In this document: piece after piece, positions 2,767 through 62,876 of the stretch
How the letters are laid out: each line of letters starts with the position of its first letter
How positions within the stretch are numbered: position 1 is the first letter of the stretch
Assembly: GCF_028368995.1 (NCBI RefSeq)
Contig: NZ_JAQNDL010000003.1
Span: 2,912,001-2,976,000 of the forward strand
DNA: 64,000 bases
Direction: 5' to 3'
Source of the DNA: Nannocystis bainbridge
GTDB lineage: Bacteria > Myxococcota_A > Polyangia > Nannocystales > Nannocystaceae
Position numbers and translations under genes: made by a program
The notes under the pieces: generated by a model
What the model was told of the DNA's origin: nothing
Database searches by the model: none
What the model saw: only the letters and a program-made list of their open reading frames with translations

Positions 2767-2808
2767 TGTCCTGACGGACATGTTTATAATGACATGTCCT
2801 GATGAACA
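2767..2808. repeat. Array of 3 tiled 14-bp TGTCC-N4-GGACA-type palindromes at a convergent junction
   Basis: TGTCCTGACGGACA, TGTTTATAATGACA, TGTCCTGATGAACA abut at 14-bp period. Confidence 0.85.
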
Positions 2809-2820
2809 CATCATTCGCGC

Positions 2821-3927
2821 TCACCACTTCGGCGAAGTCAGCGCGATCGGCAGCACCGCGACGCGCCGCAGGGTCGCCCCGACCTCCCACACGCGCCCCA
2901 CGATCTTCGCGTTCACGTCCTCGACCGTCACCCAGTGCAGCCGATCCGCGTGCATGAACGCGAGGGCCGGCAGCGGCAGCGAGAACGGCAGCCCGCACTG
3001 ATGATCGCGCAGCAAGAACGAGTCCGGCCACGCGCGATCGGCCCTGGCCACCAGCGCCTGCCCCGAGCCGTCGGCCAGCTCGCGCACCACCGACAGCTGC
3101 GCGCTCTTCACACTGCGCCCGTGCTCCACCGCATGCAGCACGTGCAGCGGCTCGCTCCCGTCGGCGAGCGTCACCCGCACCGCCCGCCACCGCCGCTTGC
3201 GCAGCGCCGCGATCTGCTTGTCGAACAAGGAGCGATCGATCGGCGCCGCCGCGTCCGTCACCGGGATCATCGCCCCCGGCTCGTCGAAGTCCTTGTCCGG
3301 GTCCTGACACACCGCGTCGACGCGGACCTCGAACTGCATCGCCACGGGCGTCGGCGGGCGATGCCGGCGATGAAACGCGAACACGAAGTCGAGCGGCGGT
3401 CCGCCATCCACCATGTACTTCGCGGCCGCCCCGGCGCCGAGTGCCTCGTCGCACCGCAGCGGCGCCTCGGTGACGATCGCCACCGCCTTCACGCACGTCT
3501 CCTCGCTCTCGTCGGAGGTCACCGCCTCCGGCGCTGACAGCCCCGCGCCGCAGTATTCGAACGATTTGCCGGCCGCCGCGCGCACCGCCCCGCCGGCGTT
3601 CGTCATCACCCACAGCGGCTCGCCCTCGCGCCAGCCTTCGACCTCGGGCCCGACGACGAACGGCCCCTCGTCAGGCTGGTCCTGTCGACAGCGGCCGAAC
3701 GCGAGCTTCGACAGATCGAACTCGACCAGCTCCGCCGGATCGGCCGGCACCCGCGCAGGCACGACGGCGACCTCCGGCTCGCTCGCAACCGCAGTCGGCG
3801 GCGGCGGGGACTCGCGCGGCGCCGGCACCTTCGGCGCCGCTCGCGGCGTGCACGCCAACATCACGCACACGAGCGCATGCCGCGGACCGAACTCGAACAC
3901 CCTGCCTTCGCGTCGCCGCCTCATCAT
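2821..3927 (-). CDS. Hypothetical lipoprotein
   Basis: C-terminal part of ORF 2821..4839 has a lipobox-like VMLAC, a Pro-rich linker and a globular region; start uncertain. Confidence 0.65.
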   Translation of the reverse strand: MMRRRREGRVFEFGPRHALVCVMLACTPRAAPKVPAPRESPPPPTAVASEPEVAVVPARVPADPAELVEFDLSKLAFGRCRQDQPDEGPFVVGPEVEGWREGEPLWVMTNAGGAVRAAAGKSFEYCGAGLSAPEAVTSDESEETCVKAVAIVTEAPLRCDEALGAGAAAKYMVDGGPPLDFVFAFHRRHRPPTPVAMQFEVRVDAVCQDPDKDFDEPGAMIPVTDAAAPIDRSLFDKQIAALRKRRWRAVRVTLADGSEPLHVLHAVEHGRSVKSAQLSVVRELADGSGQALVARADRAWPDSFLLRDHQCGLPFSLPLPALAFMHADRLHWVTVEDVNAKIVGRVWEVGATLRRVAVLPIALTSPKW

Positions 3928-3944
3928 GCGCCCTGTCCTCGGCG

Positions 3945-4874
3945 TCAGCGCGAGGCCGTGATCGGGAAGTTCTGATCGACGCAAGGCGCCCCCAGCATGC
4001 CGTTGAAGCACGAGCACTGAGCGCCCGTGAACGTCAGTCGATACGTCCCCGACCACGTGTCCTTGTCGACGAACTCGCCCTCGACCGCGTACGTCTCGGT
4101 GCACCCGCCCGCGATCGACGCCTCGTTGGCGAAATCGCCGTCGGGGCACATCGTCGGCTCGCCCGCCATGGCGATCGGGTTCGAAGGGCTCGACACGATC
4201 GTCGCCCCGTCGCCAGAGAACGTGAACGCCGAGATGTTGACCGACACCAGCCCGGCGCAGCACGTGTAGCTGACCGGCGCGCCCTCGATCGTGTAGAGCC
4301 CGTCTGGGTCGCACGCCTCCACCGCGCACGCTCCGTCGCAGCCGTCGCCCGCGTCGAGGTTGCCGTCGTCGCACGCCTCGCCCGCGTCGAGGTTGCCGTC
4401 GCCGCACGCGCTGCAGCCCTGAGTGTCGAACTCGCACGCCTCGGTGCACCCGAGCTCGCCGCCGTCGAAGCCCTGCGATTGACACGAAGCGCCGCCGAGT
4501 TGGTCGCCGTCGCACGACTCGTCGGCGTCGAGGACCCCGTCCCCACACGCGAGCGGCGGCCGCCCGGTCGTCGTGCTGTCGACGCCCGTCGTCGTCGTCG
4601 TGCTCGTCGTGCTCGTCGTCGAGGTCACCGGCTCGCCCGTCGTCGGCTCCGCCGTCGTGCTGGTCGAGGTCGAGGTCGTGCCCGGCTCCGTCGTCGTGCT
4701 CGTCGTCGGCGTGCCCGTCGTCGGCGTGCCCGTCGTGCCCGTGCTCGTGCTCGTGCTCGTCTCCGTCGCATTGCCGCTGTCGGTCGTCGCGCCCGGGTCG
4801 TCCCCGCCGCAACCGATCACCAGCAACCCCGCCAACCACCCCGCCCGACCCAGACCTCGCGCAAGCTCGTTCAT
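3945..4874 (-). CDS. Thr-rich lipoprotein with myxobacterial Cys-rich repeats
   Basis: LLVIGC lipobox, Thr-rich stalk, CGDGVLDADESCDG and CGDGNLDAGEACDDGN...GDGC repeats. Confidence 0.85.
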   Translation of the reverse strand: MNELARGLGRAGWLAGLLVIGCGGDDPGATTDSGNATETSTSTSTGTTGTPTTGTPTTSTTTEPGTTSTSTSTTAEPTTGEPVTSTTSTTSTTTTTGVDSTTTGRPPLACGDGVLDADESCDGDQLGGASCQSQGFDGGELGCTEACEFDTQGCSACGDGNLDAGEACDDGNLDAGDGCDGACAVEACDPDGLYTIEGAPVSYTCCAGLVSVNISAFTFSGDGATIVSSPSNPIAMAGEPTMCPDGDFANEASIAGGCTETYAVEGEFVDKDTWSGTYRLTFTGAQCSCFNGMLGAPCVDQNFPITASR

Positions 4875-4972
4875 CCCGTGATGAGACGCCGGAACGCCGC
4901 TCGTGGCAAGCGCGCGCTGGACCGATCCGTCGCTCGCGGGCGCGCGCGACCGCCTCCGCGCCCGGGACCTCG

Positions 4973-7696: not shown

Positions 7697-9228
7697 CCCA
7701 CATCGTCTACGTCCCGATCGACGCCACCGCGCGATCCGTCGGCGCCGATGAAGTCGCGGCGGCGATCGCCCGCGAGGCCGCGGCCCGCGGCGAGCCGGTC
7801 AAGATCGTCCGCAACGGCACGCGCGGAATGTGCTGGCTCGAGCCGCTGGTCGAGGTCGTCACCCCCGCCGGCCGCGTCGCCTACGGCCCGGTCGAGGTCA
7901 CCGACGTCGCCTCGCTGTTCGCCGCCGACTTCCTGCGCGGCGGCGATCACCCGCTGGCCCACGGCCGCACCGACGACATCACCTGGCTCAAGAGCCAGGA
8001 GCGACTCACCTTCGCCCGCGTCGGCCTCACCGACCCGCTCGACCTCGCCGACTACCAGGCCCACGGCGGCCTGCGCGGCCTGCGAGCCGCCCTGTCCCTG
8101 GGGACAGGTGGCGACATCATCGAGGAGGTCGTGAAGAGCGGCCTGCGCGGTCGCGGCGGCGCCGCCTTCCCGGCCGGCATCAAGTGGCGCACCGTCGCCG
8201 GCGCCGTCGCCGATCGCAAGTACATCTGCTGCAACGCCGACGAGGGCGACAGCGGCACCTTCAGCGACCGCATGGTGATGGAGGGCGACCCGTACGTCCT
8301 GCTCGAGGGCATGGCGATCGCCGGCCTCGCCGTCGGCGCCGAGTACGGCTACATCTACCTCCGCTCCGAGTACCCCGACGCCGAGCGCGCCTTGCAGGCC
8401 GCGATCGCCTGCGCGCGCGCGGCCGGCTGGCTCGGGCGCGACATCCTCGGCAGCGGCCGCAGCTTCGACATCGAGCTGCGCCGCGGCGCCGGCGCGTACA
8501 TCTGCGGCGAAGAGACCGCCATGCTCGAGAGCCTCGAGGGCAAGCGCGGCATGGTCCGGCCCAAGCCGCCGCTGCCGGCGATCTCCGGCCTGTTCGGCAG
8601 GCCCACCGTCATCAACAACGTCATCACCCTCGCCAGCGTCCCGATCATCCTCGACCGCGGCGCGCAGTACTACGCCGACTACGGCATGGGTCGCTCGCGC
8701 GGCACCTTGCCGTTTCAGCTCGCCGGCAACATCAAGCGCGGCGGCCTGGTCGAGAAGGCCTTCGGCCTCACCCTGCGCGAGCTCGTGCACGACTACGGCG
8801 GCGGCACGGCCAGCGGTCGGCCCGTGCGCGCCGTCCAGGTCGGCGGCCCGCTCGGCCCTTACTTGCCCGAGTCCAAGTTCGACATCCCGCTCGACTACGA
8901 GGTCTTCGCCGCTGCCGGCGGCATGATCGGCCACGGCGGCCTCGTCGTCTTCGACGACACCGTCGACATGGCCCTCATGGCTCGTTATGCCATGGAGTTC
9001 TGCGCCATCGAGTCGTGCGGCAAGTGCACCCCGTGCCGGATCGGCAGCACCCGCGGCGTCGAGGTCATCGACCGCATCCGCAACAACGAGCGGCGCGGCC
9101 CCAACCTCGTCCTCTTGCGCGATCTCTGCGACACCATGACCCACGGCTCCCTGTGTGCCATGGGCGGCCTCACCCCCGCTCCCGTGCTCAGCGCGCTCGA
9201 GCACTTCCCCGAGGACTTCCAGCGCTGA
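7693..9228 (+). CDS. fdsB: NAD-dependent formate dehydrogenase beta subunit (NuoF-like)
   Basis: SGLRGRGGAAFP, NADEGDSGT, GAYICGEET, ESCGKCTPCR. Confidence 0.95.
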   Translation: MTHIVYVPIDATARSVGADEVAAAIAREAAARGEPVKIVRNGTRGMCWLEPLVEVVTPAGRVAYGPVEVTDVASLFAADFLRGGDHPLAHGRTDDITWLKSQERLTFARVGLTDPLDLADYQAHGGLRGLRAALSLGTGGDIIEEVVKSGLRGRGGAAFPAGIKWRTVAGAVADRKYICCNADEGDSGTFSDRMVMEGDPYVLLEGMAIAGLAVGAEYGYIYLRSEYPDAERALQAAIACARAAGWLGRDILGSGRSFDIELRRGAGAYICGEETAMLESLEGKRGMVRPKPPLPAISGLFGRPTVINNVITLASVPIILDRGAQYYADYGMGRSRGTLPFQLAGNIKRGGLVEKAFGLTLRELVHDYGGGTASGRPVRAVQVGGPLGPYLPESKFDIPLDYEVFAAAGGMIGHGGLVVFDDTVDMALMARYAMEFCAIESCGKCTPCRIGSTRGVEVIDRIRNNERRGPNLVLLRDLCDTMTHGSLCAMGGLTPAPVLSALEHFPEDFQR

Positions 9229-13012: not shown

Positions 13013-14095
13013 CTACTTGTGCTCCCCGAGCGCCAGCAGCTCGCGCGCTCGCGGCCGCAGCCCCTGCCACACCGCCCACATCCCCGCCGGGAACAGCCCC
13101 TCCGCCCCCGCAAACACCTCCTGCGACCACTCCACCCAGAAATAACAGCACTCCCCATCCGGCAGCCGCCCCGCCCGACACACCGCCGCCAGCTCCGCGC
13201 AGCGGGCCGCGATATGCTGGCAGGCCAGCTCGGCAGTATCGTCCTCGCCTTCAAACTCGCCAGGCGCCCGCGCAGCGACCGCGTCGAGCTGCGCCAGCAA
13301 CACCTGCCGCTCCTTCGCCGAGCTCGCCCAGTACGCATAAAACGGCAGCCAGCACGGCGTGTTCCACCGCTCCTCGTCGAACACGGCTTCATACGTCGCC
13401 GCGAGCGGCGGCCGCGGCTCCCAGAAGCGATACGCCAGCGCCCCGACCAGCAGCTCCGCGATCGGCCCCGCGACCTCTGGCAAACCCGCCGCGATCCGCC
13501 GCTGCAGCCCCGCCGGCTCGTCCGTGATCGGCTGTCCCAGAGGACATGACCCCATGACCATGCTCCGCACCGCCAGCGCCGCCGGCAGCGGCGCCATCGG
13601 TCGCAGCGCCGGCAGTTCGATCCGCTCGACCAGCCCGCGCGCCCGGCTGTCGCAGAGCAGCACCTCGTTCAGCACCGTCCACCCGTGCCCGATCGCCCGC
13701 AGTTGCGGCGCCCCCTCCGGCCCGAGCCTGCAGGCGATCGTGCGGTGCTTCTCGCGATATACCAGCACCACCGCCCCGTCCCACCAGCGCAGGTGGCCGA
13801 CGTCGCAGCCGAAGTACGGGTTGTACGTATCGACCTTCCACTCGCGGAGTTGCCTCTCACCGCTCCGCATGTGCAAGAAGTAATCGACGTCGACCCAACC
13901 TCCGTCGTCCTCCTCGACCTTCTCGACCCACGCCACCCGCTCGCCCGCGACCGCCCCGCCGACGATCGCGTGCGTGTAGCCGTCCTCCGCCGCCCATTCA
14001 CGCGACCGCCCGAGCCGCGCGCAGACTGCCGCGATCTCCGCCTCCTGCTCTTCGCTCACCTCGTCCCACTCGGGAAACAGCGCGCGGACGTCCAT
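13013..14095 (-). CDS. Hypothetical protein
   Basis: 360-aa ORF with globular, Trp/Tyr-rich composition; no motif recognised. Confidence 0.75.
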   Translation of the reverse strand: MDVRALFPEWDEVSEEQEAEIAAVCARLGRSREWAAEDGYTHAIVGGAVAGERVAWVEKVEEDDGGWVDVDYFLHMRSGERQLREWKVDTYNPYFGCDVGHLRWWDGAVVLVYREKHRTIACRLGPEGAPQLRAIGHGWTVLNEVLLCDSRARGLVERIELPALRPMAPLPAALAVRSMVMGSCPLGQPITDEPAGLQRRIAAGLPEVAGPIAELLVGALAYRFWEPRPPLAATYEAVFDEERWNTPCWLPFYAYWASSAKERQVLLAQLDAVAARAPGEFEGEDDTAELACQHIAARCAELAAVCRAGRLPDGECCYFWVEWSQEVFAGAEGLFPAGMWAVWQGLRPRARELLALGEHK

Positions 14096-14935: not shown

Positions 14936-15160
14936 CCCTGTCCTTGCGAGCATGTCCTCTCAGACATCTCGCGAGTGACAGCGACACTGCCTCGTCCTGT
15001 CCCTGTGAGCATGTCCTCTCGGACATCGCGCGAGTGACAGCGACACTGCATCGTCCTGTCCCTGACAGCATGTCCCCTCGGACATCTCGACGACATCGCC
15101 GAGATCCTCTGGCTGCTCCGAAGCTACCTGTCCCTGCGAGCATGTCCTCTCGGACACCTC
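14936..15160. repeat. 59-bp tandem repeat built from tiled 14-bp palindromes (4 copies, last two partial)
   Basis: Units start at 14937, 14996, 15055 and 15127; perfect TGTCC-N4-GGACA at 15012, 15071, 15143. Confidence 0.9.
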
Positions 15161-18411: not shown

Positions 18412-19284
18412 ATGCCCGCGCCCCGCCTGATCGTCGATCACGTGGTCGCCACCGACGCCGCGCTCGTCGACCTCCGGATCGAGATGCTCGAGCACGGCGC
18501 CTTCTCGGTCCGCGGCGTCACGGCCGTCGAGCTGGTGCAGGAGACCTTCCAGTGCTTCATGCGCTGCCTGGAAGGCGCTGTCCCACCGGACATGTCCGAT
18601 CGGGCATGCGCCGAGCTGAACGGCGACGGGCCGTTCGACCTGGCCCCCGACCTCCTGGCGGCGACCGGCGCTCCGCTGCCCGCTGGCGTCTACGACCTCG
18701 TGCACGCCATCGTCCCCCTTACCGCGATTCATCACACCGGCCTGTGCGTCAACTTCCCGGGTGATTACGGGGTCAGCTACCGCGAGCCGGACGCCTGGGG
18801 CGTCGAAGTCCGCGAGGCAGGCTCGGATCGCCGCCTCGGCTACGGCCGCGACAATCCCCAACCCACGCCCACGGTGATGTACCGCGGCACGATCGGCGAC
18901 CTGGCGATCTTGCTGCTACCGCTCACCACCGCCGCCGACGCCGCGCGCATCGACCACTACGCTCAGCGCCTCACTGCCGGCGCCCGCCCAACCGCGCTCG
19001 CCTTCGGCTGCTACGCCAACGAGCGCTGCGCCGTCGCCGTCGTGCTCGACGGCCACCACAAGCTCGCCGCCGCCGCCGCCACCAGCGCGCCCGTCGGCGT
19101 GCTGATGTTCCTCTCGCCGCGTCTGTTCCGCAGCTACGCCGACTGCCCGCGGTACCATCCCCGCCCCGAGATCAGCCTCGAGGCCGCCCGCCGCAACATC
19201 GTCGGGCCCACGCACGCTCGGCTCGCCTGGGCCGACGAGCTCGAGCTCCAGCGCTCGTTTCGCCCGCCGTGGTCGCGCGAGTAG
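18412..19284 (+). CDS. Hypothetical protein with VLDGHHK (ParB/Srx-like) motif
   Basis: ORF with typical codon bias; RPTALA...VVLDGHHKLAAA. Confidence 0.7.
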   Translation: MPAPRLIVDHVVATDAALVDLRIEMLEHGAFSVRGVTAVELVQETFQCFMRCLEGAVPPDMSDRACAELNGDGPFDLAPDLLAATGAPLPAGVYDLVHAIVPLTAIHHTGLCVNFPGDYGVSYREPDAWGVEVREAGSDRRLGYGRDNPQPTPTVMYRGTIGDLAILLLPLTTAADAARIDHYAQRLTAGARPTALAFGCYANERCAVAVVLDGHHKLAAAAATSAPVGVLMFLSPRLFRSYADCPRYHPRPEISLEAARRNIVGPTHARLAWADELELQRSFRPPWSRE

Positions 19285-19326
19285 TCCAGCGTCTTCGCAC
19301 ATGTCCTACCGGACATGTCCCTACAT

Positions 19327-20015
19327 TCACCCCGCCCGCGCCGCCAGCTCGCGCTGACCGATCGCGTTGAGGTCGCGCGTCTCGAGCACGTATTTCGCCG
19401 TCCCGTCGCGGGCCACCGCGATCATCGCTCGCCCCATCTGCTCCGTGCTCGTCACCAGCCCCGGCAGCAGTAACTTCCACAGCGGATACAGGGGCGCCAG
19501 CACCGCGTAGAACAGGTTGTACATCCGAGTGCGCGAGCGGATCCCGTGCAGCGGCTGGACGAACGCCGGGCGGACCACATAGCTCGCGTGCAGCGGCAGC
19601 TCGCGCAACGCGTTCTCCGTCTTCCCTTCACCCGCGCCCACATCACCCGCCCGCGTTCGCTGCTGTCGGCGCCCATGCCCGACACGAACACGAACGTCAG
19701 CTGCGGGCTCGACGCTGCCAGCGAGCGCGCCGCGGACAGCGTCAGGTCGTACGTCACCCGCGTGTACTCGGCCTCGGACATCCCCGCCGACGACACCCCG
19801 ACGCACCAGAAGCACGCGTCGTGCCCCGCCAGCCCCTCCGCGATCGGCGAAAGATCGCCCAGGTCCGCGTGGATCAGCTCGCGCAGCTTCGGGTGGTGCT
19901 GACCCGTCGGATTGCGGCCGACCACCGTCACGCGATCGATCTGCGGGTCCAGCAGCGACTCGCGCAGCACCGCCTGACCGATCATCCCTGTCGCCCCGAA
20001 GATCAGCACCTTCAT
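19327..20015 (-). pseudogene. NAD(P)H-binding epimerase-like protein, frameshifted (pseudogene or sequencing error)
   Basis: MKVLIFGATGMIG...WARVKG in one frame continues as KTENAL...RPAFVQP in another; one base missing near 19625. Confidence 0.8.
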
Positions 20016-20245
20016 CGCGTCACCCCTTCGGACCTGTCCCCGGGGGCAGGTTCATCCCTGTCGCCCCGAAGATCCTTCATCGCGTCAGCCCCTCGGACCT
20101 GTCCCCGGGGCCAGGTTCATCCCTGTCGCCCCGAAGATCCTTCATCGCGTCAGCCCCTCGGACCTGTCCCCGGGGGCAGGTTCATCCCTGTCGCCCCGAA
20201 GATCCTTCATCGCGTCAGCCCCTCGGACCTGTCCCTGGGGGCAGG
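19983..20245. repeat. 65-bp tandem repeat of the SDR stop/epimerase start junction
   Basis: Near-identical units start at 20051, 20116, 20181; a longer ancestral copy overlaps the epimerase 5' end. Confidence 0.92.
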
Positions 20246-21120
20246 TCGAAGCGCACCCCCGTCAGCTCCTCGGAGCGCTGCCACAGCCGCGCCGCGAGCT
20301 GCTCGTTGCGGGCTTGCGGCGGCACCCAGGCCCGGATCGGCGCCCCGCGCATCAGCAAGATCCGCGGCCCGTAGTACTCGCCGCCGCGCACGTCCGCGGC
20401 CGTCGCCGCGCGCAGCGACGGCAGCGCCCCGTCTTGCGCCGACTGCCCGAGCAGCTTGATGCTGCGCGTGAACGCGTGCTTCTGCAGCCCCGTCGAAGCC
20501 CCGCCCGGGTGGGCCGCCATGCTGCGCAGCCCGGTGTCGCCGGCGCGCCGCTGCAGCTCGAGCATGAACATCAGGTTGGCCAGCTTCGACCGCCCGTAGG
20601 TGCCCATCGGCGTGTAGCGCCGCTCGCTCTGCAGGTCGTCGATGTCGAGCCGCGCGCCCCAGGCCACGCCGCTGCTGACCGTCACCACTCGCGGTGCCGC
20701 GCTGGCCCGCAGCGCCGGCAGCAGCAGCCCCGTCAGCGCGAAGTGCCCGAGGTGATTGGTGCCGAACTGCTTCTCGAACCCGTCGACCGTGGTCTCGCGC
20801 CGCGGCAGCGCCATGATGCCGGCGTTGTTGACCAGCAGGTCGAGCCGCGGGTGGGCCCGCCGCACCTGCTCGGCGAACGACCGCACCGACGCCAGCGACG
20901 ACAGGTCGAGCGGGACGAGCTCGACCTTGCCCCCCGACTGCTGCCGCAGGCCGCTCAGCGCCTCCTCGCCGCGGGCGGCGTCGCGGCAGCCGATGACCAC
21001 CTCCGCCCCCGCGCGCGCCAGCTCCAGCGCCGTGTAATAGCCGATACCGCTGTTCGCGCCCGTGACCACGGCGGTCGTGCCGTCCAGTCGTGGGATGTCC
21101 TTCGTGCCCCAGCCGCTCAT
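20215..21120 (-). CDS. Short-chain dehydrogenase/reductase
   Basis: TGANSGIG, LVNNAG, YGRSK, HPG. Confidence 0.95.
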   Translation of the reverse strand: MSGWGTKDIPRLDGTTAVVTGANSGIGYYTALELARAGAEVVIGCRDAARGEEALSGLRQQSGGKVELVPLDLSSLASVRSFAEQVRRAHPRLDLLVNNAGIMALPRRETTVDGFEKQFGTNHLGHFALTGLLLPALRASAAPRVVTVSSGVAWGARLDIDDLQSERRYTPMGTYGRSKLANLMFMLELQRRAGDTGLRSMAAHPGGASTGLQKHAFTRSIKLLGQSAQDGALPSLRAATAADVRGGEYYGPRILLMRGAPIRAWVPPQARNEQLAARLWQRSEELTGVRFDLPPGTGPRG

Positions 21121-22905: not shown

Positions 22906-24075
22906 GTGCCGATCGCCTTCTCGCGCTCATTGCGGGCTCTGGGGGCCGAGAGCGCGCGCGGCACGGTCGTCGGCGTCGCCCTCGCCGTCGGCTTCCTCGC
23001 CGCCTGGGCCGCCTGGTCGATGCTCGCGCGGGTCAGCCTGATCGCCACCAGCGAGCAGGCTCGCCTCGAGGTCGCGCGGGCCGCCGTCCCGCTCGCCCCG
23101 GTCCTCGAGGGACGTGTCCTTTCGGCCAGCCTCGCGCTCGGCCGCCGCGTCGCCGCCGGTGAACCATTGCTCGAGCTCGACAGCCGCGGCCTCCAGCTCG
23201 CGCGAGCCGAGGTCGACGCCGAACGCCAGGGCCTGCTCACCGAGCTCGGCGCCCTCGCCGGTGAGCACGCCGCCCTCGCCGCCGCGATCGAGGCCTTCGA
23301 GGCCGGAGGTCGCACGCGCCAGAGCGAGGCCTCTGCCAGCGCCCAGGAGGCCCAGATCGCCGCCGCCTTCGCCCGCACCATGGCCGAGCGCAGCGAGAGC
23401 CTGCGCGGCCTCGGCGTCGAGTCGAGCGAGGCCGCCGAATTGCTGCAAGCGCGCGAGCGAGGCAGCGCCGCGGTGGCGACGATCCGCCGCCTGCAGATCG
23501 CGCGCACCCGGGCCGAGCTCGGCGAGCGGCTGGCGACGATGCGCATCGACCTCGCCCGCACCCTGCGCGAGGAGGCCGAGCTGCAGCGAGCGCTGGCCAC
23601 GAAGATCGCCGCGCTCGCGCGCCTCGACCACCAGATCGACCAACACTCGCTGCGCGCCCCGATCGCCGGCCGGCTCGGCGGCGTGGTCCCGCTGCAACCC
23701 GGCGCCGTGCTCGCGCGTGGGGCCGTGGTCGCGCTCGTGATCCCCGACGACCCGCTGCGCATCGTCGGCCGCTTCACCCCCGCCAGCGTCGGCCGGATCC
23801 GCCCCGGCCAGCCCGCCCGCATGCGCCTCGACGGCTTCCCCTGGACCGAGTTCGGCAGCCTCCGCGGCCGCGTCGCCGCCGTCGCCAGCGAGGCCGAGGA
23901 CGGCCTCGTCCGCGTTGAGTGCGACATGTCCACAGGGACAGATAATATGTCCGAAGGGACAGCTAGCAAGATCCCTGCCGAGCACGGCCTCACCGGCGTG
24001 CTCGAGATCGAGGTCGAGTCCGTCGCGCCCGCCGCCCTGCTGCTGCGCACCATCGGTCAGGCCCTCGCCCCATGA
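22906..24075 (+). CDS. HlyD family membrane fusion protein
   Basis: N-terminal TM, lipoyl-like halves (GRVLS...GEPLLEL, LRAPIAG), coiled coil, IRPGQPARMRLDGFPW. Confidence 0.9.
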   Translation: MPIAFSRSLRALGAESARGTVVGVALAVGFLAAWAAWSMLARVSLIATSEQARLEVARAAVPLAPVLEGRVLSASLALGRRVAAGEPLLELDSRGLQLARAEVDAERQGLLTELGALAGEHAALAAAIEAFEAGGRTRQSEASASAQEAQIAAAFARTMAERSESLRGLGVESSEAAELLQARERGSAAVATIRRLQIARTRAELGERLATMRIDLARTLREEAELQRALATKIAALARLDHQIDQHSLRAPIAGRLGGVVPLQPGAVLARGAVVALVIPDDPLRIVGRFTPASVGRIRPGQPARMRLDGFPWTEFGSLRGRVAAVASEAEDGLVRVECDMSTGTDNMSEGTASKIPAEHGLTGVLEIEVESVAPAALLLRTIGQALAP

Positions 24076-30560: not shown

Positions 30561-30598
30561 GGTCATGTCCTTTTGCGCATGTCCTAAGGGTCAGATGA

Positions 30599-40316: not shown

Positions 40317-40386
40317 TGTCCTTCGTGACAGGTCCCAAGGGGCATGCTCCTCCGAGCATGCCCCTTCGCGCATGTCCGAACAGCCA
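40317..40386. repeat. Array of 5 tiled 14-bp palindromes at a convergent junction
   Basis: TGTCCTTCGTGACA, GGTCCCAAGGGGCA, TGCTCCTCCGAGCA, TGCCCCTTCGCGCA, TGTCCGAACAGCCA. Confidence 0.85.
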
Positions 40387-43289: not shown

Positions 43290-44804
<1,515 letters not shown>

Positions 44805-44821
44805 CCGAGAGGACCTGTCCC

Positions 44822-46165
44822 ATGAGCCATATCCTCTTCGTCGCGGTCCTCGCCCTCAAGTCGCCGGCCGCCCCGGCCGCGGTCACGCTCGTCAAGGGCG
44901 GCGACCTCCACGTCGGCGACGGCACCGTCGTCGAGGACGCCACCATCATCATCCGCGACGGTAAGTTCGCCGCCGTCGGCGGCCCCGAGCTCACGGCCCC
45001 GAGCAACTCTGGGGTCACGCTCGTCGACGCCCGTGGCAAGATCATCACCCCCGGCCTGGTCGCCAGCGACAACCAGCTCGGCCTCGTCGAGATCGACCTC
45101 GAGGGCAGCACCCACGACGACGCCCGCGGCGGCGACCACCCGGTGCGCGCCGCTTACGACGCCAGCCGGGCCTTCAACGCCGAGTCGAGCCTGATCCAGG
45201 TCCAGGCGATCGGCGGCGTCACCACGGCCGCGGTCGCGCCCGCGGGCGGCTTGCTCTCGGGACAGGTCGCGTGGGTCGACCTCGTGCACGGCGACCACCG
45301 CGGCGCGCTGAGCAAGGCCGGCGTGGCGATCGACGGCAACCTCGGCCACAGCTACGGGGGCTCGCGCGCGGCCGCGCTGGCCAAGCTGCACGAGGTCCTC
45401 ACCGACGCGCAGGTGTTCCGCGGCCGCAAGGACGCCTACGAGCGGGCCCAGACCCGGCCGTTCGCCGCCCACGCGCTCGACCTGCAGGCGCTGCAGCCGG
45501 CGCTCGCCGGACAGATCCCGCTGACGCTGTCCGCCGACCGCGCCAGCGACATCCTCGCCGCGCTCGACCTCGCCAAGGAGTACAAGCTGCGGCTCGTGAT
45601 CGTCGGCGGCTCCGAGGCGTGGAAGGTCGCGCCCGAGCTGGCCGCCGCCAAGGTGCCCGTGGTGCTGCAGCCGACGCGCAACCTCCCGGGCAGCTTCGAC
45701 ACCCTCGGCGCCCGCCTCGACACCGCCGCCCTGCTCGCCGCCGCCGGCGTGCCCGTCGTCATCGCCTGGCTCGACGACTCGCACAACCTCCGCAACATCA
45801 CCCAGGAGGCCGGCATCGCCGTCGCCAACGGCCTGCCCTGGGCCGCCGCCCTGCGCGCGATCACCCTCGAGCCGGCCCTCGCCTACGGCCAGGGCACCAC
45901 GCACGGCAGCGTCGCCGTCGGCAAGGTCGCCAACCTCGTCGTCTGGAGCGGCGACCCACTCGAGCTCAGCAGTCGGCCCACCGACGTGCTCGTCCGCGGC
46001 CGCGCGATCCCGATGGTCTCGCGCCAGACCCTCTTGCGCGACCGCTACCGCAGCCTCGACAAGTTCGGCGCCGCCGCGCCATCGACGAACTCGAACGCGC
46101 GCCCTCGCCCCGACACCGGCGCCGCCGCGACCACCGCGACCACCGCGGCACCACCGCAAAAGTGA
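44822..46165 (+). CDS. Amidohydrolase family protein, metal ligands degenerate
   Basis: Same fold signatures (ITPGL, GGVTT, GKVANLVVWSGDP), but HxH is replaced by SDNQ. Confidence 0.85.
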   Translation: MSHILFVAVLALKSPAAPAAVTLVKGGDLHVGDGTVVEDATIIIRDGKFAAVGGPELTAPSNSGVTLVDARGKIITPGLVASDNQLGLVEIDLEGSTHDDARGGDHPVRAAYDASRAFNAESSLIQVQAIGGVTTAAVAPAGGLLSGQVAWVDLVHGDHRGALSKAGVAIDGNLGHSYGGSRAAALAKLHEVLTDAQVFRGRKDAYERAQTRPFAAHALDLQALQPALAGQIPLTLSADRASDILAALDLAKEYKLRLVIVGGSEAWKVAPELAAAKVPVVLQPTRNLPGSFDTLGARLDTAALLAAAGVPVVIAWLDDSHNLRNITQEAGIAVANGLPWAAALRAITLEPALAYGQGTTHGSVAVGKVANLVVWSGDPLELSSRPTDVLVRGRAIPMVSRQTLLRDRYRSLDKFGAAAPSTNSNARPRPDTGAAATTATTAAPPQK

Positions 46166-49421: not shown

Positions 49422-49477
49422 TGTCCCGAGGGACATGTTACGAGGGACATGCCCTTTCAGGCATGTCCCTCGGGACT
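49422..49477. repeat. Array of 4 tiled 14-bp palindromes at a convergent junction
   Basis: TGTCCCGAGGGACA, TGTTACGAGGGACA, TGCCCTTTCAGGCA, TGTCCCTCGGGACT. Confidence 0.88.
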
Positions 49478-51728: not shown

Positions 51729-52051
51729 TGGCACGGCTGCAGCCGTGAGGGGCCGACCCGCCGTCGTGGGCTCCGCTGGCGGATGTCCTCCGGGACAGGT
51801 TCATGAGCGGGCGTCGGACGGCCAGGGCTGGCCGCCCGACACCCGCCGTCTCGCGTCATTCACGGCGTGTCCTTCTGGCGGCTCGTCGTCACGCTCGAGC
51901 GCCCCGTAACGCCGGCAGGATCCCGACACCTGCCGCCTCGCTTCCTCGGGCGACGTCTCACGACGAACGACAGCACGGCCGCGATGCGCATCATCGCGGG
52001 AGTCCAGGGACCGCAGGCTCGCACATCAGGTCGTGGCTTTTATTGGGATGT

Positions 52052-57117: not shown

Positions 57118-57173
57118 TGCTCTGAAGACCATGCCCGCGAGGACATGTCTTCGCGGGCATGTCCTTTGGGTCA
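57118..57173. repeat. Array of 4 tiled 14-bp palindromes at a convergent junction
   Basis: TGCTCTGAAGACCA, TGCCCGCGAGGACA, TGTCTTCGCGGGCA, TGTCCTTTGGGTCA. Confidence 0.85.
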
Positions 57174-58807: not shown

Positions 58808-59150
58808 GAACGAGATTCTCCTGTTTCAGCGGTCGTGATCGATGGTCCACGCGTGCGGCCTCGCCGAGAACGTCCTGCCGCGCGCGGCCCGGCCCGCCCA
58901 TCGGAGCGCGCCGGAGCGCGCCGGAGTCGTAACGAAAGACCCACGCCGGGCACGGTCCCCGATCGGCCGGCAACGTTACAAACCACGGCACCGAAGTCGC
59001 GACCTCGGTCGACGACGAGCGCGAGCGCGCTCGAGTCCGTCTCTGCATGAGGACGACTCGAGGCTCGCGTCACCGGCTCATGTCACCCGCTTCGCGCGTC
59101 GCCGCTCCCTTGCGCGACGCGAATCATTGCTGTCCCTTGGGACATGACCT

Positions 59151-60106: not shown

Positions 60107-61435
60107 GTGCCGAGAAACCCCATCACCGCCCGCGCCCTGGCCGTTCAGACCCTCCGGCAGATCGATCAACGCCGCGGCTTCAGCAACCGGATCCTGGCCG
60201 AGCAGTTCGAGCGTCACCCGGACCTCGAGCGGCGCGAGCGCGGCCTCACCACCAACCTCGTGTACGGCGTGCTGCGCCACCGCGGCCGCCTCGACGCGCT
60301 GATCGACGCCGTCGCCGTGCGCCCGAAGAACCTCAGCGCCCGCGCGCGAGAGATCGCCCGCGTCGCCGTGTTCGAGCTGCGCGAGCTGCAGCACCCGCCG
60401 CACGCCGCGATCTCGCAGGCCCTCGGCCTCGCCACCGCGCTCGACCCGAGCGGCGGCCTGGCCCGCCCGCTGCACGCCATCCTCTCCGCCATCGACCGCG
60501 AAGGCGCCGCCGCCGACGCCCGCCTCGCCGCCGGCAAGCCGCTCGACGTGCTCGCCGATCGCTGGTCGATCCCCCGCTGGCTCGCGGGCCGCTGGATCGC
60601 CAACCTCGGCCCCGACCTCGCCCTCGCCCGCGCCCGCGCCCTCGCCGAGCCGCCCGCCGTCGAGCTGCGCGTCGACCTGTCCCGAACGACAGCCGACGAC
60701 GTCGCCGCGGCCCTGCGCGAGGCCGAGCCGAAGGCCCTCGTCGAGCCGATCGCCGACCAGCCGCAGGCCCTGCGGGTGCGCAGCGGCGGCGAGCTGGTCC
60801 GCCACCCGCTGCACGAGCGCGGCCTGTTCTCGGTCCAGGCCCTCGGGGCGCAGCGCGCCGCCCTGACTCTTGCGCCATGTCCTGAAGAACATGTCCTGGA
60901 CGCCTGCGCCGGCATGGGCACCAAGTCGCTGCAGCTGGCCGAGCTGATGGGCCGCCGCGGCCGTCTGGTCGCCGCCGACGCCAGCGAGCTCCGGCTCGGC
61001 GAGCACGCCGCCCTGCGCCGCCGCGGCGGGCTCGACGTCGAGGGCCTCGAATTCACCTCGGTGATCGCCGACCTCGCCGCCGATGAGCCGCAGCCCGGCG
61101 TCGACGACTCGACCTACGACGCCGTCCTGCTCGACGCCCCCTGCACCGGCCTCGGCAACCTGGCCCGCCACCCCGAGCTGCGCGGCACCGTGCAGTTCGC
61201 GGACATCGCCGTCTGCGCCGCCCTCCAGCGCCGCCTGCTCGACCGCAGCCGCGCCCGCGTGCGCCCCGGCGGCCGCCTGGTCTACGCCGTCTGCAGCCTC
61301 GAGCCCGAGGAGGGCCCGCGCCTGGTCCGCGCCGCGTGCGACGCCGGCAGCTTCACGCTCGAGCACGAGGAGACCTGGACGCCCGAGGCCCACCAGACCG
61401 ACGGCTTCTACCTGGCCCGCCTGCGCCCGAGCTGA
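60107..61435 (+). CDS. rsmB: 16S rRNA m5C methyltransferase RsmB/Sun (NusB + NOL1/NOP2 domains)
   Basis: LVYGVLRH, VLDACAG.G.K, LLDAPCTG.G, LVYAVCS, TDGFY. Confidence 0.88.
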   Translation: MPRNPITARALAVQTLRQIDQRRGFSNRILAEQFERHPDLERRERGLTTNLVYGVLRHRGRLDALIDAVAVRPKNLSARAREIARVAVFELRELQHPPHAAISQALGLATALDPSGGLARPLHAILSAIDREGAAADARLAAGKPLDVLADRWSIPRWLAGRWIANLGPDLALARARALAEPPAVELRVDLSRTTADDVAAALREAEPKALVEPIADQPQALRVRSGGELVRHPLHERGLFSVQALGAQRAALTLAPCPEEHVLDACAGMGTKSLQLAELMGRRGRLVAADASELRLGEHAALRRRGGLDVEGLEFTSVIADLAADEPQPGVDDSTYDAVLLDAPCTGLGNLARHPELRGTVQFADIAVCAALQRRLLDRSRARVRPGGRLVYAVCSLEPEEGPRLVRAACDAGSFTLEHEETWTPEAHQTDGFYLARLRPS

Positions 61436-61510: not shown

Positions 61511-61698
61511 GCATCGATCGGCGCCGCGGCTCGGAGGGCAACTCCGGGCCTCGCAGCCGTTGGAGCGCATCGATCTTTGCCGGGCTCCTGGAGGGCAACT
61601 CCGGGCCCCGCAGCCGTTCAGTGTATCGATTGGCGCCGCGCTCCTGGAGGCCCACTCCAGGCCCCGCAGCCGTTCCGTGCATCCATCTGTGCCGCGCG
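61511..61698. repeat. 56-bp tandem repeat (3.3 units) with internal hairpin
   Basis: Units at 61511, 61567, 61623, 61679; GGAG-N5-CTCC stem-loop in each full unit. Confidence 0.85.
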
Positions 61699-61764
61699 AC
61701 TCCGGGCCGGTGCGCCGGGGCCCGCTCGCACGTTCGCGCCAGTGGCGCGCTTCTGTGCCGGACA

Positions 61765-61820
61765 TGGCCCCGAGAGCATGCCCTTCGAGACATGCCCTTC
61801 GGAACATGTTCGAACGAACA
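61765..61820. repeat. Array of 4 tiled 14-bp palindromes
   Basis: TGGCCCCGAGAGCA, TGCCCTTCGAGACA, TGCCCTTCGGAACA, TGTTCGAACGAACA. Confidence 0.85.
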
Positions 61821-61924
61821 CTCAAGTTTCGCTCACGGCTGCGCTCCGGCTCGCTCCGCCGCGCCTGCGTCGAGGTCATCCTTCGCCTCGACGCGCATCG
61901 AGTTTTTTCAAGAGCGGCTCGCTG

Positions 61925-62530
61925 TCAGGGCTGCGCCCCGGGCGACGCCGGGGCGGGTGGGACCCCGCCCATCAGCTGCTGCAGCTTGGCCGCGTTCGGG
62001 TCGTCCGCGGGCACCGCGTCGATGAACTTGCGGGCGTGGTGCTGGGCCTCGTCCTTCACCCCCGCTTCCCACGTCAGCACCGCCAGGTTGAAGCGGGCCG
62101 GGTTGTAGCTCGGATCGGCCTTGAGCGCCGCCAGGTAGCGGCTGCGGGCGTCGTTGTACTTGCCGCGCTTTTGGGCCACGAGGCCCAGGTTGTAAAGCAC
62201 CAGCGCATCGCCGGCGTCGCTGGCGAGCGGCTCCAGCAGGCGGGTCGCCTCGTCGAGATCGTCGCGGAGGATCGCCAGCTTGGCCGCGAGCAGCTTGGCG
62301 TCGCGGCCGGCACCGGCGGCGATCGCCTGCTCGGCGGCGAGCCGCGCCTCCTCGTGGCGCCCGGCGGCCTCGAGCTCGAGCGCCTCGAGGTACTTCTTCT
62401 CGGCCTCCGGCGACGCGGCCGGGGCCTCGGCGCTCGGGCGGTCAGGCGGGGCAGCCGGCGAAGAGCCGTCGCAGGCCACGGGTAGCGCGAGCAGGAGCGG
62501 GAGCAAGGCACGGCGCAGGCACGAAATCAT
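61925..62530 (-). CDS. TPR lipoprotein
   Basis: LPVAC lipobox; TPR motifs (VLYNLGLVAQKRGKY, ARFNLAV). Confidence 0.85.
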   Translation of the reverse strand: MISCLRRALLPLLLALPVACDGSSPAAPPDRPSAEAPAASPEAEKKYLEALELEAAGRHEEARLAAEQAIAAGAGRDAKLLAAKLAILRDDLDEATRLLEPLASDAGDALVLYNLGLVAQKRGKYNDARSRYLAALKADPSYNPARFNLAVLTWEAGVKDEAQHHARKFIDAVPADDPNAAKLQQLMGGVPPAPASPGAQP

Positions 62531-62876
62531 CAAGGACCTCGGTCGACCTCGCAGTCGTAGCATAGTTCCGCCGCCGACGTCCTCTGCGCGTCGCGGCGCC
62601 CCCTCCGCCGCGCCACCGTATCCCGCCGGTCCGCCGCGCGCCGCCGCTCTCACATGTCCCGAAGGACATACGCCTGCACGCGCGCATGTCTCTCGGGACA
62701 TCCGCGCCGCAGGCCCGTGCAGCGGCCGACGCACCCGCCTCGCGCGAACCTGGCGCTTGTGGTCTCGCTGCCAATCGTGATAGCTTGGGCTCCGATCGAC
62801 GTGGGTCGATCACCGCGTCCCTCGCTGTGGACGTCGCTCTTCGGAACTGGGGGTGATCATGCGCCGAACCGCGCCT

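Follow-up and report, generated by a model that had tools for sequence, protein, structure and literature searches.

An abundant 14-bp palindrome behind Nannocystis genes is a candidate recognition site for a DNA-binding protein

We find that the palindrome TGTCC-N4-GGACA, whose perfect 14-bp copies consist of two 5-bp arms around a 4-bp centre, occurs either singly or in exact 14-base rows throughout an 11.05 Mb genome (71.5% G+C, five contigs). A word kept by selection at thousands of sites points to a putative DNA-binding protein marking gene ends. With moderate confidence, we read the palindrome as a selectively maintained, two-fold symmetric recognition site in double-stranded DNA, most likely read by a putative dimeric, sequence-specific DNA-binding protein. 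Along with such a protein reader we infer dimer binding, cooperation between neighbours and a benefit to the cell.

Abundance and 14-bp register of the palindrome

The window, the whole stretch of 64,000 nt that was analysed, contains 19 perfect copies by exact-match count, starting at 2767, 8093, 13533, 15012, 15071, 15143, 18579, 19302, 23927, 23948, 26620, 28898, 28964, 30995, 41880, 49422, 51784, 59131 and 62655. Every one of these starts had been listed in a sequence-only reading of the same DNA, and its chance estimate of ~0.05 perfect copies per 64 kb agrees with dinucleotide-preserving shuffles of the window (n=100; mean 0.06, maximum 1). Its figure of about 30 loci including degenerate copies was somewhat low, as the window holds 47 matches at ≤1 arm mismatch. 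Across the genome, the spacer count that it had proposed singles out x=4, with 1987 perfect copies compared to 0-19 for each spacer of 0-3 and 5-14; a further 4258 copies carry one mismatch, and the pattern read backwards occurs only 3 times. All five contigs carry the motif with an even spread, which bears out the idea of a chromosome-wide signal.

The distances between successive ≤1-mismatch matches genome-wide are predominantly 14 bp (485), 28 (274), 42 (165), 56 (58) and 70 (28), other distances having single- or double-digit counts only, so that the suspected lag-14 periodicity appears as peaks at 14, 28, 42 and 56 bp. Head-to-tail abutment in the window was likewise recovered, with 4 units at 49422-49477 and 3 each at 57132-57173, 33770-33811 and 61779-61820. 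The abutting arms of neighbouring units form GGRCATGYCC junctions every 14 bp, and CATG-N10-CATG is found 3736 times in the genome versus 66-298 times for N6-N9 and N11-N15. Adjacent units share identical centres in 19 of 485 pairs (6.6 by chance); since neighbouring units lack common centres, the rows are read as maintained in register rather than as fresh slippage products.

The sites in the window are listed below, with their state in four same-genus relatives, which are kin and not independent samples.

2767..2808, three-unit row (perfect 2767-2780, degenerate AT-rich middle unit, 1-mismatch 2795-2808) filling the 59-bp convergent gap between an alpha/beta hydrolase gene (1853-2761, +) and an ORF (2821-3927, -)
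8093..8106, perfect copy within the NuoF gene (7693-9228, +), read as L-S-L-G-T; arms kept and centre different in G001, the sole relative aligned there
13533..13546, perfect copy; arms kept in 4/4 relatives (1 arm change in G001), centres across the five genomes CAGA, CCGA, CACA, CACA and CAGG
14939..15156, cluster between convergent genes (14341-14931, +; ChaN-like, 15180-16082, -), with three abutting pairs (14939/14953, 14998/15012, 15129/15143) and one isolated unit (15071), on a tandem repeat of 59 bp
18579..18606, a perfect and a 1-mismatch unit abutting within ORF 18331-19284; conserved in both G001 and G007
19302..19315, perfect copy beginning 18 bp past position 19284, where ORF 18331-19284 ends, and followed by a convergent ORF
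19982..20246, four copies of a 65-bp tandem repeat, each with a 1-mismatch unit (20035, 20100, 20165, 20230)
23927..23961, two perfect copies (starts 21 bp apart) shortly upstream of a C39-peptidase ABC exporter gene (24072-26762); the 23948 copy keeps its arms in 4/4 relatives, its centre differing in each of the five genomes
25323..25350, pair of abutting 1-mismatch units within the ABC exporter gene; conserved in relatives
26620..26633, perfect copy in the part of the ABC exporter gene that encodes the C-terminus
28898..28977, convergent gap with two perfect copies; 28898 starts 4 bp past the stop of an ABC gene (26759-28894)
28964-28977, the second of these copies, followed on the minus strand by a T-run and looking like a terminator of gene 29076-30566 (-)
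30566..30593, two degenerate units abutting between a pair of minus-strand genes
30995..31008, perfect copy within a squalene-hopene-cyclase-family gene (30599-32419, -)
33770..33811, intergenic three-unit row; middle unit conserved in 4 relatives, centres vary
34286..34313, two abutting 1-mismatch units; conserved in relatives
38623..38664, three-unit row between two convergent genes, 37681-38625 (+) and a pseudouridine synthase gene (38668-39654, -)
39087..39114, two abutting units within the pseudouridine synthase gene
40317..40344, two abutting units starting 16 bp past the end (40301) of ORF 39750-40301
41880..41907, perfect and 2-mismatch units within a UbiA-family gene (41049-42002, -); perfect unit identical in 4/4 relatives
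44774..44829, degenerate row of four units where genes 43476-44804 and 44822-46165 meet
49422..49477, four-unit row in a convergent gap, directly adjoining the stop of the Pirin gene (49477-50391, -); in five relatives the orthologous gap likewise holds 14-bp CATG rows, with different units
51784..51797, perfect lone copy in a region not alignable with relatives
57132..57173, three-unit row between the convergent genes 55435-57114 (+) and 57188-58807 (-)
59131..59144, perfect copy; arms kept in 3 relatives, centres CTTG, GAAG, GAAG and GATG
60678..60891, two 1-mismatch copies (60678, 60878) within the RsmB methyltransferase gene; identical in 4/4 relatives
61779..61820, degenerate three-unit row
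62655..62700, intergenic perfect copy (62655) and 1-mismatch copy (62687); both in relatives with altered centres

Placement behind genes and conservation between species

Placement was scored on crude GC3-based gene calls made for this analysis. Convergent gaps have the highest site density (1.47 per kb), tandem gaps are intermediate (0.61) and divergent gaps lowest (0.23), and 62% of copies lie outside gene calls (18% of the genome), a non-coding density several-fold that of coding DNA. A facing 3′ end is <20 bp away in 341 of 1557 distances, whereas a facing 5′ end is 0-20 bp away in 23 of 915 non-overlapping distances, with 12 further sites overlapping a called start. Annotation-free classes give the same direction (444 sites adjoin a gene end versus 198 at a gene start), and sites are avoided in the ~80 bp before start codons.

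Aligned blocks between the species have about 78-95% DNA identity. For in-gene sites (20 sites, 73 site-relative pairs) identity is 0.94 in the arms, 0.77 in the centre and 0.81 in the outer flanks; for sites outside called genes (11 sites, 35 pairs) the values are 0.85, 0.68 and 0.76. Such alignments indicate that the arms are under purifying selection while the centres drift, in genes too. Intergenic gaps that are otherwise unalignable still keep arrays, and among 82 orthologous gaps of G000 and G001 a site is present in both for 35, in G000 only for 11, in G001 only for 6 and in neither for 30 (odds ratio 16, Fisher p 1.3e-7).

Arm variation and a possible RNA hairpin

The consensus of the site is (R-C-A) T-G-n-C-Y N4 R-G-n-C-A (T-G-Y). 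Among the 4258 one-mismatch copies, the change falls on arm position 2 in 1889 and on position 4 in 1389, followed by 498 changes at position 3, 432 at position 0 and only 50 at position 1 (G/C), leaving the G at position 1 almost invariant and position 2 nearly free. This uneven constraint resembles a profile of base contacts, not a uniform stem. No flank position beyond ±3 carries information across the 1987 sites, in keeping with the earlier claim that flanks are unrelated between loci; the same claim for the centres holds in part, because the two middle bases prefer CG, TC/GA and AA/TT and avoid TA.

Alternatively, the element could work as a hairpin, in RNA or in single-stranded DNA: a 3′ stem-loop of REP type (UGUCC-loop-GGACA) that ends transcription or protects mRNA 3′ ends against exonucleases. 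We consider this possible but unlikely. It would account for the copies directly behind stops and between convergent genes, since palindromic arms give the same stem in transcripts from either strand, and kept arms with free centres are likewise expected of a hairpin whose loop is free. The stem can be extended to 8 bp with ACA/TGT flanks, and complementary flanks are slightly in excess (A-T 652 versus 560 expected, C-G 413 versus 334), the mutual information of the -1/+14 pair being 0.03 bit. UUCG/CGAA is the commonest centre pair (193/1987); however, its orientation relative to the upstream gene shows no bias (TTCG 32 versus CGAA 37). Similarly, the copy at 28964-28977 (minus strand) precedes a T-run as in an intrinsic terminator, but T-runs do not generally follow the sites.

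Co-variation in the arms also speaks on both sides. Some complementary double changes exist, such as TGGCC-N4-GGCCA at the 26620 site in two relatives; C-G doubles at positions 2/11 number 146 versus 86 expected, and pairs 3/10 and 4/9 show a small T-A excess. Nevertheless, at 2/11, the most variable pair, 1889 one-arm variants stand against 249 complementary doubles, upholding the earlier remark on frequent non-compensatory arm substitutions. There are 103 cases of position 11 A>G versus 58 of position 2 T>C, the direction of a sense-strand U-G wobble, but the asymmetry at pair 4/9 runs opposite and is absent overall (234 G-U-compatible changes versus 195 in the mirror class). With co-variation this weak and no sense-strand G-U asymmetry, the variation fits half-site recognition better than RNA pairing, as the sequence-only reading had preferred. 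Moreover, a 5-bp stem is weak in our judgement, a terminator would harm the conserved genes that hold copies, and a stem needs no fixed genome-wide sequence unless it is read by a protein.

Copies inside genes and a possible molecular drive

We find 315-378 copies within real genes, about a sixth of the total, including NuoF, a squalene-hopene-cyclase-family protein, UbiA and RsmB. When codon position 3 coincides with the first motif base, this base is T in 185 of 218 cases, and when it coincides with the last, the base is A (108 of 118), against a genomic G+C content of 71.5%. The in-gene copies override codon bias and are under constraint at the DNA level.

Copies could also pile up wherever they are tolerated by molecular drive, without local function, as a species-specific tag favoured in uptake and recombination (DUS/USS-like), or through a sequence-specific bias in repair or conversion or a process tied to a methyltransferase, as has been discussed for HIP1. 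The point changes that impose the motif on codons, the even chromosomal spread, the enrichment behind genes (as with DUS) and the range of the motif are all compatible with drive: thousands of copies are confined to one myxobacterial genus, Nannocystis by its named relatives, with a weaker signal in two sister genera at graded copy numbers of 87 and 161. Uptake bias, though, does not predict exact 14-bp rows with unrelated centres, and uptake sequences are not known to be bipartite palindromes or to tile in register. CATG has a genome-wide observed/expected ratio of 1.24 and, being neither avoided nor otherwise odd, leaves no restriction-type footprint. We judge drive to be less likely again than a hairpin.

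A selfish mobile repeat (a REP/REPIN mobilised by a RAYT transposase, or some miniature transposon) would suit a short, palindromic, intergenic, high-copy and clustered sequence of one lineage, but is very improbable and close to refuted, and the earlier reading too had spoken against a copied mobile element: the Y1_Tnp/RAYT domain is found in 0/11 same-genus genomes and in neither motif-carrying sister genus (6/14 control genomes are positive), flanks and terminal repeats are not conserved and the GTAG/CGTC head is absent, 1629/1987 sites have no non-local relative of at least 50 bp and the sole large similarity cluster is array matching array, copies in conserved domains come without insertions, and sites are kept at orthologous places across species.

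A proposed boundary element read by a protein

For the favoured reading, a recognition site for a dimeric protein, the basic unit would be the single 14-mer, and abutting units would allow dimers to bind in a common register, with a turn of about 120 degrees between one and the next. This 14-bp register would place successive dimers on different helix faces, with no obvious geometry for cooperativity. Sites would accumulate where gene expression suffers least, behind stops and above all between convergent genes, a pattern suggestive of a REP/BIME-like boundary or architectural element that lacks a RAYT-type mobilising enzyme. Such an element would act on topology, transcription read-through or nucleoid structure. 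The placement behind stops and off the pre-start region fits alike the three roles proposed in the sequence-only reading (nucleoid organisation, topology, transcription roadblock), and just as well any element with harmful effects in promoters.

Comparison with known systems

The extended site A-TGTCC-N4-GGACA-T fits the PadR-family operator consensus ATGT-N8-ACAT, as given in PMC4517056, in 652 of 1987 copies. A PadR domain (PF03551) is not detectable in the genome, whereas the same search is positive in 14/14 control genomes.

The uptake sequences DUS (Neisseria) and USS (Pasteurellaceae) resemble the motif in having genus-specific dialects and about one copy per few kb, in and behind genes, and DUS pairs often form terminators. 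Unlike the motif, they are asymmetric, palindromic only as inverted pairs, and have no free centre or phased rows. HIP1 (GCGATCGC) of cyanobacteria is over-represented in coding and non-coding DNA, imposed on codons and conserved between relatives. Like the motif it is a perfect palindrome far above expectation, conserved between relatives and, to our knowledge, with no mobile element behind it and no known function. HIP1 is an unbroken 8-mer with no 4-bp spacer and, as far as we know, neither tiles in register nor concentrates behind genes, unlike the motif with its denser non-coding copies.

REP/BIME elements of enterobacteria and pseudomonads share with the motif short palindromic units in hundreds to thousands of lineage-specific copies, mostly behind genes or between convergent genes, with frequent head-to-tail clustering. 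Gyrase, IHF and Pol I bind BIMEs, which have been tied to supercoiling, termination and mRNA stability, the very roles considered for the motif. The motif differs in lacking RAYT (11 genus genomes) and the GTAG/CGTC head, in its weak co-variation, in a unit of only 14-20 bp with a sequence-free 4-bp centre, in rows of exact 14-bp register without alternating orientation classes, and in its share of copies in genes.

In geometry, the motif matches the 5-N4-5 operators of the CRP/FNR class (TTGAT-N4-ATCAA), with the two-fold symmetry, 5-bp arms and 4-bp centre of FNR. Met-box rows of MetJ consist of AGACGTCT repeated 2-5 times, with one dimer per unit and cooperation between neighbours, and the motif rows follow the same principle of palindromic units abutting in exact register, with a unit of 14 bp instead of 8. 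MetJ and CRP/FNR operators serve a handful to about a hundred promoters, whereas the motif occupies thousands of sites and avoids promoters.

Abundance, spacing and tiling of the motif

All 19 perfect copies of TGTCC-N4-GGACA that the sequence-only reading had listed were recovered in the window at their 19 starts, compared with a mean of 0.06 and a maximum of 1 in 100 dinucleotide-preserving shuffles. At ≤1 arm mismatch the window, whose G+C content runs from 67 to 76%, holds 47 matches. The whole N. bainbridge assembly has 11.05 Mb at 71.5% G+C in 5 contigs, here C1 to C5, the window being C2:2912001-2976000. In it we counted TGTCC-Nx-GGACA for x from 0 to 14; spacer 4 gave 1987 copies and any other spacer 0-19, and a reversed-pattern control yielded 3 copies. 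One-mismatch copies number 4258 at spacer 4 and 137-267 at other spacers. Every contig is evenly populated with copies, at 10-79 per full 250-kb bin, which agrees with the chromosome-wide distribution that had been proposed from the window. A bias relative to ori or ter found no support in these bins, which include no empty domain on any contig. GC skew in the window is negative in 16 of 16 bins of 4 kb (-0.04 to -0.20), and the cumulative GC skew keeps one direction along almost the whole length of every contig, falling on C1, C2 and C5 and rising on C3 and C4. Since there is no skew turning point well inside the contigs, no ori or ter lies there, with the possible exception of C3 (maximum at 1.47 of 2.0 Mb).

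The copies tile with an exact 14-bp period. Successive matches are 14 bp apart in 485 cases, 28 bp in 274, 42 bp in 165 and 56 bp in 58, and CATG-N10-CATG occurs 3736 times in the genome, against 66-298 occurrences for N6-N9 and N11-N15. The head-to-tail arrangement that the sequence-only reading described is visible within the window as rows of four, three and two units, the two-unit rows being found at several places.

Rows of three or more abutting units in the window
33770-33811, three-unit row
38623-38664, three-unit row
49422-49477, four-unit row
57132-57173, three-unit row
61779-61820, three-unit row

Genome-wide, when rows are chained from matches with ≤2 mismatches of which at least one member has ≤1 mismatch, chains of 1, 2, 3, 4, 5, 6, 7 and 8 units number 4102, 1100, 289, 75, 49, 17, 3 and 2, so that singles and rows together occupy about 5600 places. 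A preference for multiples of three units (42 bp, or 4 turns) was unsupported, row sizes declining smoothly.

Anatomy of the unit

In a logo of the 1987 copies the palindrome continues for three weaker positions per side, R-C-A before and T-G-Y after the arms, and there is no information beyond ±3 of the arms. The 10-mer GGACATGTCC, found at the junction of abutting units, occurs 956 times, and 33 of these occurrences are without a partner arm (≤2 mismatches) at N4 distance; conversely, 493 of the 1987 14-mers have no arm-like sequence abutting either flank. Because the junction nearly always comes with a partner arm and these 493 14-mers stand without neighbors, the 14-mer is the unit, and tiling produces the junction palindrome. 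With CATG as the sole anchor, the row unit is CATG-YCC-N4-GGR and has an A+T-richer center. The row junction, GGRCATGYCC, is the p53 half-site consensus; a search for a p53-like reader (PF00870) gave 0 matches in N. bainbridge, but also 0 in the controls.

With the positions of the unit numbered 0-13, constraint is uneven along the arms. Most one-mismatch copies (4258 in total) vary at position 2 (1889) or position 4 (1389, chiefly C to T), fewer at position 3 (498) or position 0 (432), and 50 at position 1, a G paired with C. The center is partly constrained: genome-wide, positions 6 and 7 are strongly coupled (mutual information 0.32 bit), favoring CG, TC/GA and AA/TT and disfavoring TA, GC, AC/GT and AG/CT. 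DNA shape or flexibility is one possible source of this preference.

We also observed short A+T-rich boxes (TTTATAAT, GATAAT, AAAAATAAAA, TTTAATAA and TTAAA) that adjoin motif copies in this 71.5% G+C genome and may be -10-like elements, T-tracts or a component of the same signal.

A+T-rich boxes beside motif copies
Window 2781-2794
Window 23941-23946
Window 28945-28963
Several gaps of N. bainbridge and of a same-genus relative (G001)

Conservation and age of the sites

Synteny of the window extends to four same-genus genomes, whose DNA identity in aligned blocks is ~78-95%. At orthologous sites the arms are kept and the centers have changed.

Centers of orthologous sites in same-genus genomes
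Site 23948 (five genomes): GAAG, GTCG, GCGG, GGAG, CCCG
Site 13533: CAGA, CCGA, CACA, CACA, CAGG
Site 59131: CTTG, GAAG, GAAG, GATG

For in-gene sites (20 sites, 73 site-relative pairs) the arms have an identity of 0.94, the centers 0.77 and the outer flanks 0.81; outside gene calls (11 sites, 35 pairs) the corresponding values are 0.85, 0.68 and 0.76, the pairs in both sets coming from kin and being non-independent. Sites are also retained where the surrounding DNA has diverged. Comparing 480 kb of G001 with the whole N. bainbridge genome gave 82 collinear gaps with no BLAST alignment; both genomes have a site in 35 of them, N. bainbridge alone in 11 and G001 alone in 6, and 30 gaps have none (odds ratio 16, p 1.3e-7), where the genomes, as in all our comparative counts, are related. 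Rows in orthologous gaps differ in unit number and centers, and adjacent units have the same center in 19 of 485 pairs, with 6.6 expected at random. Given that sites are retained and adjacent centers unrelated, the rows are old and held in register with neutral centers, rather than products of recent slippage or insertion. Slippage as the source of rows was rejected on the 466 of 485 pairs with unrelated centers; a few true slippage arrays exist, for example at C3:1085844.

Motif copies also occur within longer tandem repeats.

Longer tandem repeats containing motif units
Window 14928-15156: 59-bp repeat, 2.7 copies and a further diverged copy, filling a convergent gap; each copy consists of two abutting units and 'GTGACAGCGACA'
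Window 19982-20246: 65-bp repeat, 4.0 copies, 95% matches, each with a single degenerate unit (TGTCCCCGGGGGCA or a near variant); the last copy alone aligned with relatives
C2:1217430-1217830: ~37-bp non-coding repeat, unit 'gacaTGTCCGCGGGGACAggtgatgaggtgacgggt', a second-order array of motif copies

Placement relative to genes

Placement was scored against our own gene calls, which are crude and derive from GC3 periodicity (7940 genes, 82% coverage). We found that 62% of copies fall outside these calls, in 18% of the genome. Density is highest in convergent gaps at 1.47 copies/kb (458 in 310 kb), followed by tandem gaps at 0.61 (641 in 1054 kb) and divergent gaps at 0.23 (137 in 589 kb). A facing 3′ end is <20 bp away in 341 of 1557 distances; a facing 5′ end is 0-20 bp away in 23 of 915, with 12 more copies overlapping the called start and most lying >80 bp away. 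An annotation-free classification by local codon periodicity placed 957 copies with both flanks non-coding, 444 as gene-end neighbors, 198 as gene-start neighbors and 315 in genes, a looser count giving 378 in-gene copies. A link to start codons through the (A)TGTCC reading that many copies show was rejected, the ATG frame being distributed 68:67:63 over the three phases among the 198 gene-start sites.

Copies inside genes

The in-gene copies are genuine and superimposed on the coding sequence. Pfam confirmed in-gene copies of the window in several conserved genes.

In-gene copies in the window with Pfam support
8093, NuoF gene
30995, squalene-hopene-cyclase-family gene
39087, pseudouridine synthase gene
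41880, UbiA gene
60678 and 60878, RsmB gene
Copies in two ABC exporter genes

In-gene copies whose first base occupies codon position 3 have T there in 185 of 218 cases, and those whose last base occupies it have A in 108 of 118. The genome is 71.5% G+C, and G+C-rich third positions were the criterion for recognizing its coding regions. Spacers that leave both arms in one codon phase (x = 1, 7, 10 and 13) have 0-11 copies genome-wide, and codon usage is therefore not the source of the motif.

Some low-complexity protein repeats are rich in copies, such as P-V-P-E-D-S encoded as CCTGTCCCCGAGGACAGC at C5:659415-660630. This repeat and that at C2:2066859-2068000 are long low-complexity coding repeats with 16-17 copies per 1.5 kb; the DNA motif may have shaped the peptide or ridden along in a disordered linker. 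As to the gene content of the window, it encodes a Pirin besides NuoF, the squalene-hopene-cyclase-family enzyme, UbiA and RsmB, and at 22906-28894 an HlyD-family gene precedes two ABC exporters, the first of them with a C39 peptidase, in an apparent module for the export of a bacteriocin or peptide.

Half-site recognition and base pairing

A palindrome can also be a hairpin element acting on RNA or single-stranded DNA, which we consider unlikely here. At pair 2/11, with the remaining eight arm positions perfect, there are 1889 one-arm variants and 249 complementary doubles, and the earlier remark that arm substitutions are often non-compensatory holds genome-wide, a pattern that fits half-site recognition better than pairing. 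Of the one-arm variants, 314 are T-G, which is wobble-capable in RNA; among the doubles, C-G is in excess (146 versus 86 expected) and G-C and A-T match expectation. Pairs 4/9 and 3/10 have small complementary excesses. The flank pair -1/+14 is enriched in A-T (652, 560 expected) and C-G (413, 334 expected), with A-G (319) and C-T (371) also common. The arms lack the pattern of compensatory change that marks a stem, the excesses over independence at 2/11 being small and the flank mutual information 0.03 bit. Relative to the upstream gene the centers have no strand preference (TTCG 32, CGAA 37), and G-U-preserving changes in the sense transcript number 234 versus 195 mirror images, with pairs 2/11 and 4/9 leaning in opposite directions. 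Taken with the flank and strand data, the weak co-variation best fits a two-fold symmetric site whose bases are recognized individually, rather than a stem maintained through pairing; pairing may make a minor contribution.

The logo of the 1987 copies has no general T-run after the sites; one copy has a T-run. On the minus strand of the window at 28954-28977, a perfect copy followed by TTTTATTTTT scores as intrinsic-terminator-like for the gene at 29076-30566. Motif-free terminators with a G+C-rich hairpin and a T-run are also present in the genome. A search of public sequencing runs for window positions 28000-37999 listed five metagenomes, sharing 8-9% of the words, and no RNA run.

We give an about even chance to the motif being a selected, double-stranded, two-fold symmetric recognition site for a candidate dimeric DNA-binding protein with a boundary, topological or architectural role. 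Like an operator, it combines symmetric half-sites, a fixed spacing and position-specific constraint, with only spacer 4 enriched and arm positions unequal. The lone 14-mer would be the unit, and rows would provide in-register platforms for several dimers. The role is suggested because copies lie behind genes and between convergent genes and away from promoter-proximal DNA, and it would resemble that of REP/BIME elements. As regards topology, the 4-bp center has the same length as the 4-bp stagger of type IIA enzymes such as gyrase and topo IV. We infer the reader protein, its binding, its cooperativity and its cellular role from these patterns.

Phylogenetic range

Perfect copies are present in 10 of 10 other same-genus genomes (114-2090 each). 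Within the family, copies number 87 and 161 in two other genera and 3-5 in six further ones; twelve other families of the class have 0-7, and controls 0-10. Phased rows (CATG-N10-CATG-N10-CATG) number 1670 in N. bainbridge, 1005-1162 in five large same-genus assemblies, 2-62 in five smaller same-genus assemblies and 0-4 elsewhere. Four of the smaller assemblies are highly fragmented (260-1440 contigs), a quality that influences row counts, and their few rows could reflect loss in short-read assembly. Across the Myxococcota, the 16-mer TGTCC-N4-GGACATG occurs 0-4 times per genome in 150 evenly drawn genomes of the phylum, compared with 689 forward and 779 reverse matches in N. bainbridge. The phylogenetic onset is sharp, comprising one genus and, more weakly, two sister genera. 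For one protein of the window, the nearest named public records belong to Nannocystis species, with 94-95% amino-acid identity.

In the sister-genus genome with 87 copies (G011), all 20 copies inspected (loci L053-L072) are lone. The 20 fetched 2-kb loci average 61% G+C, and some copies take the full ACATGTCC-N4-GGACATGT form in A+T-rich non-coding DNA. These lone copies may represent a pre-expansion state. An ancestral regulon found no support around 8 of these sites, where Pfam searches of the ORFs returned TetR, a desaturase, PhoU/ABC, a kinase and radical SAM, with nothing in common.

A drive-type signal, such as an uptake tag or a repair-linked tag, is in our view somewhat less likely still than a hairpin. 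The genus-specific distribution and the copies within and behind genes are compatible with an uptake sequence; phased rows are not predicted by it.

Mobile elements and other candidates

A mobile REP or MITE origin, which the sequence-only reading had already dismissed, is highly improbable: 1629 of the 1987 sites are without a non-local relative of ≥50 bp, so that copied flanks are lacking, the logo has only R-C-A and T-G-Y beside the arms and no GTAG or CGTC tetranucleotide head, and RAYT/Y1_Tnp (PF01797) had 0 matches in N. bainbridge, in each of the 11 genomes of the genus and in both motif-bearing sister genera, at a genome completeness of 64-91% in this search. Eight other relatives and 6 of the 14 control genomes were positive in the same search. 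The sole large similarity cluster (215 sites) consists of array matching array. The extragenic, 3′-end-enriched location is that of REP elements, yet 315-378 copies are in genes.

Two further candidates were rejected. The PadR box, ATGT-N8-ACAT in an excerpt of PMC4517056, fits one third of copies; PF03551 had 0 matches in N. bainbridge, though it was positive in 14 of 14 control genomes. A restriction or CATG-avoidance footprint disagrees with the normal frequency of CATG, whose observed/expected ratio is 1.24.

Interpretation and comparison with known systems

Beyond recognition by a dimeric protein, a bolder proposal, which we hold tentatively and regard as doubtful, is that Nannocystis has a new kind of bacterial chromatin mark, with candidate lineage-specific protein filaments on 14-bp rows. 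An abundant protein would read TGnCY-N4-RGnCA, with three dimers per four helical turns, and would form short filaments at ~5600 places, mainly gene ends and convergent gaps, where they might insulate transcription units or handle accumulating supercoils. If this is true, selection for the mark would be strong enough to rewrite synonymous sites in housekeeping genes.

Openly accessible main texts on Nannocystis, Sorangium, myxobacteria and palindromic or inverted repeats yielded no description of the motif; the excerpts of PMC3372372, PMC12306157 and PMC10434271 make no mention of it. Bacterial chromosomes have few features as poorly understood as their short dispersed repeats, of which REP/BIME, HIP1 and uptake sequences are examples. 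The present motif is an unusually clean case, with a single fixed geometry, thousands of copies, in-register rows, purifying selection on the arms and a neutral center. Since it is clean, has a sharp phylogenetic onset and comes with no mobile enzyme, its putative reader should be findable by pull-down or phyletic profiling. It thereby makes it possible to ask directly if bacteria have a dedicated DNA-binding system for marking gene ends and convergent gaps. In practice, work on the large biosynthetic genomes of the genus, from cloning and PCR to assembly and heterologous expression, will be affected by these palindromes.

MetJ met boxes are tandem palindromic operators, which the tiling of the motif resembles, and FNR-type sites have a similar geometry. 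Among dispersed repeats, REP/BIME elements are closest in working, sharing placement and clustering; the motif differs from them in lacking a RAYT, a GTAG/CGTC head and a compensatory stem. It is like HIP1 as a palindrome over-represented in coding and non-coding DNA and imposed on codons, and like DUS/USS in its genus-specific 'dialect'. What sets it apart from all three is the bipartite 5-N4-5 form and the exact 14-bp tiling.
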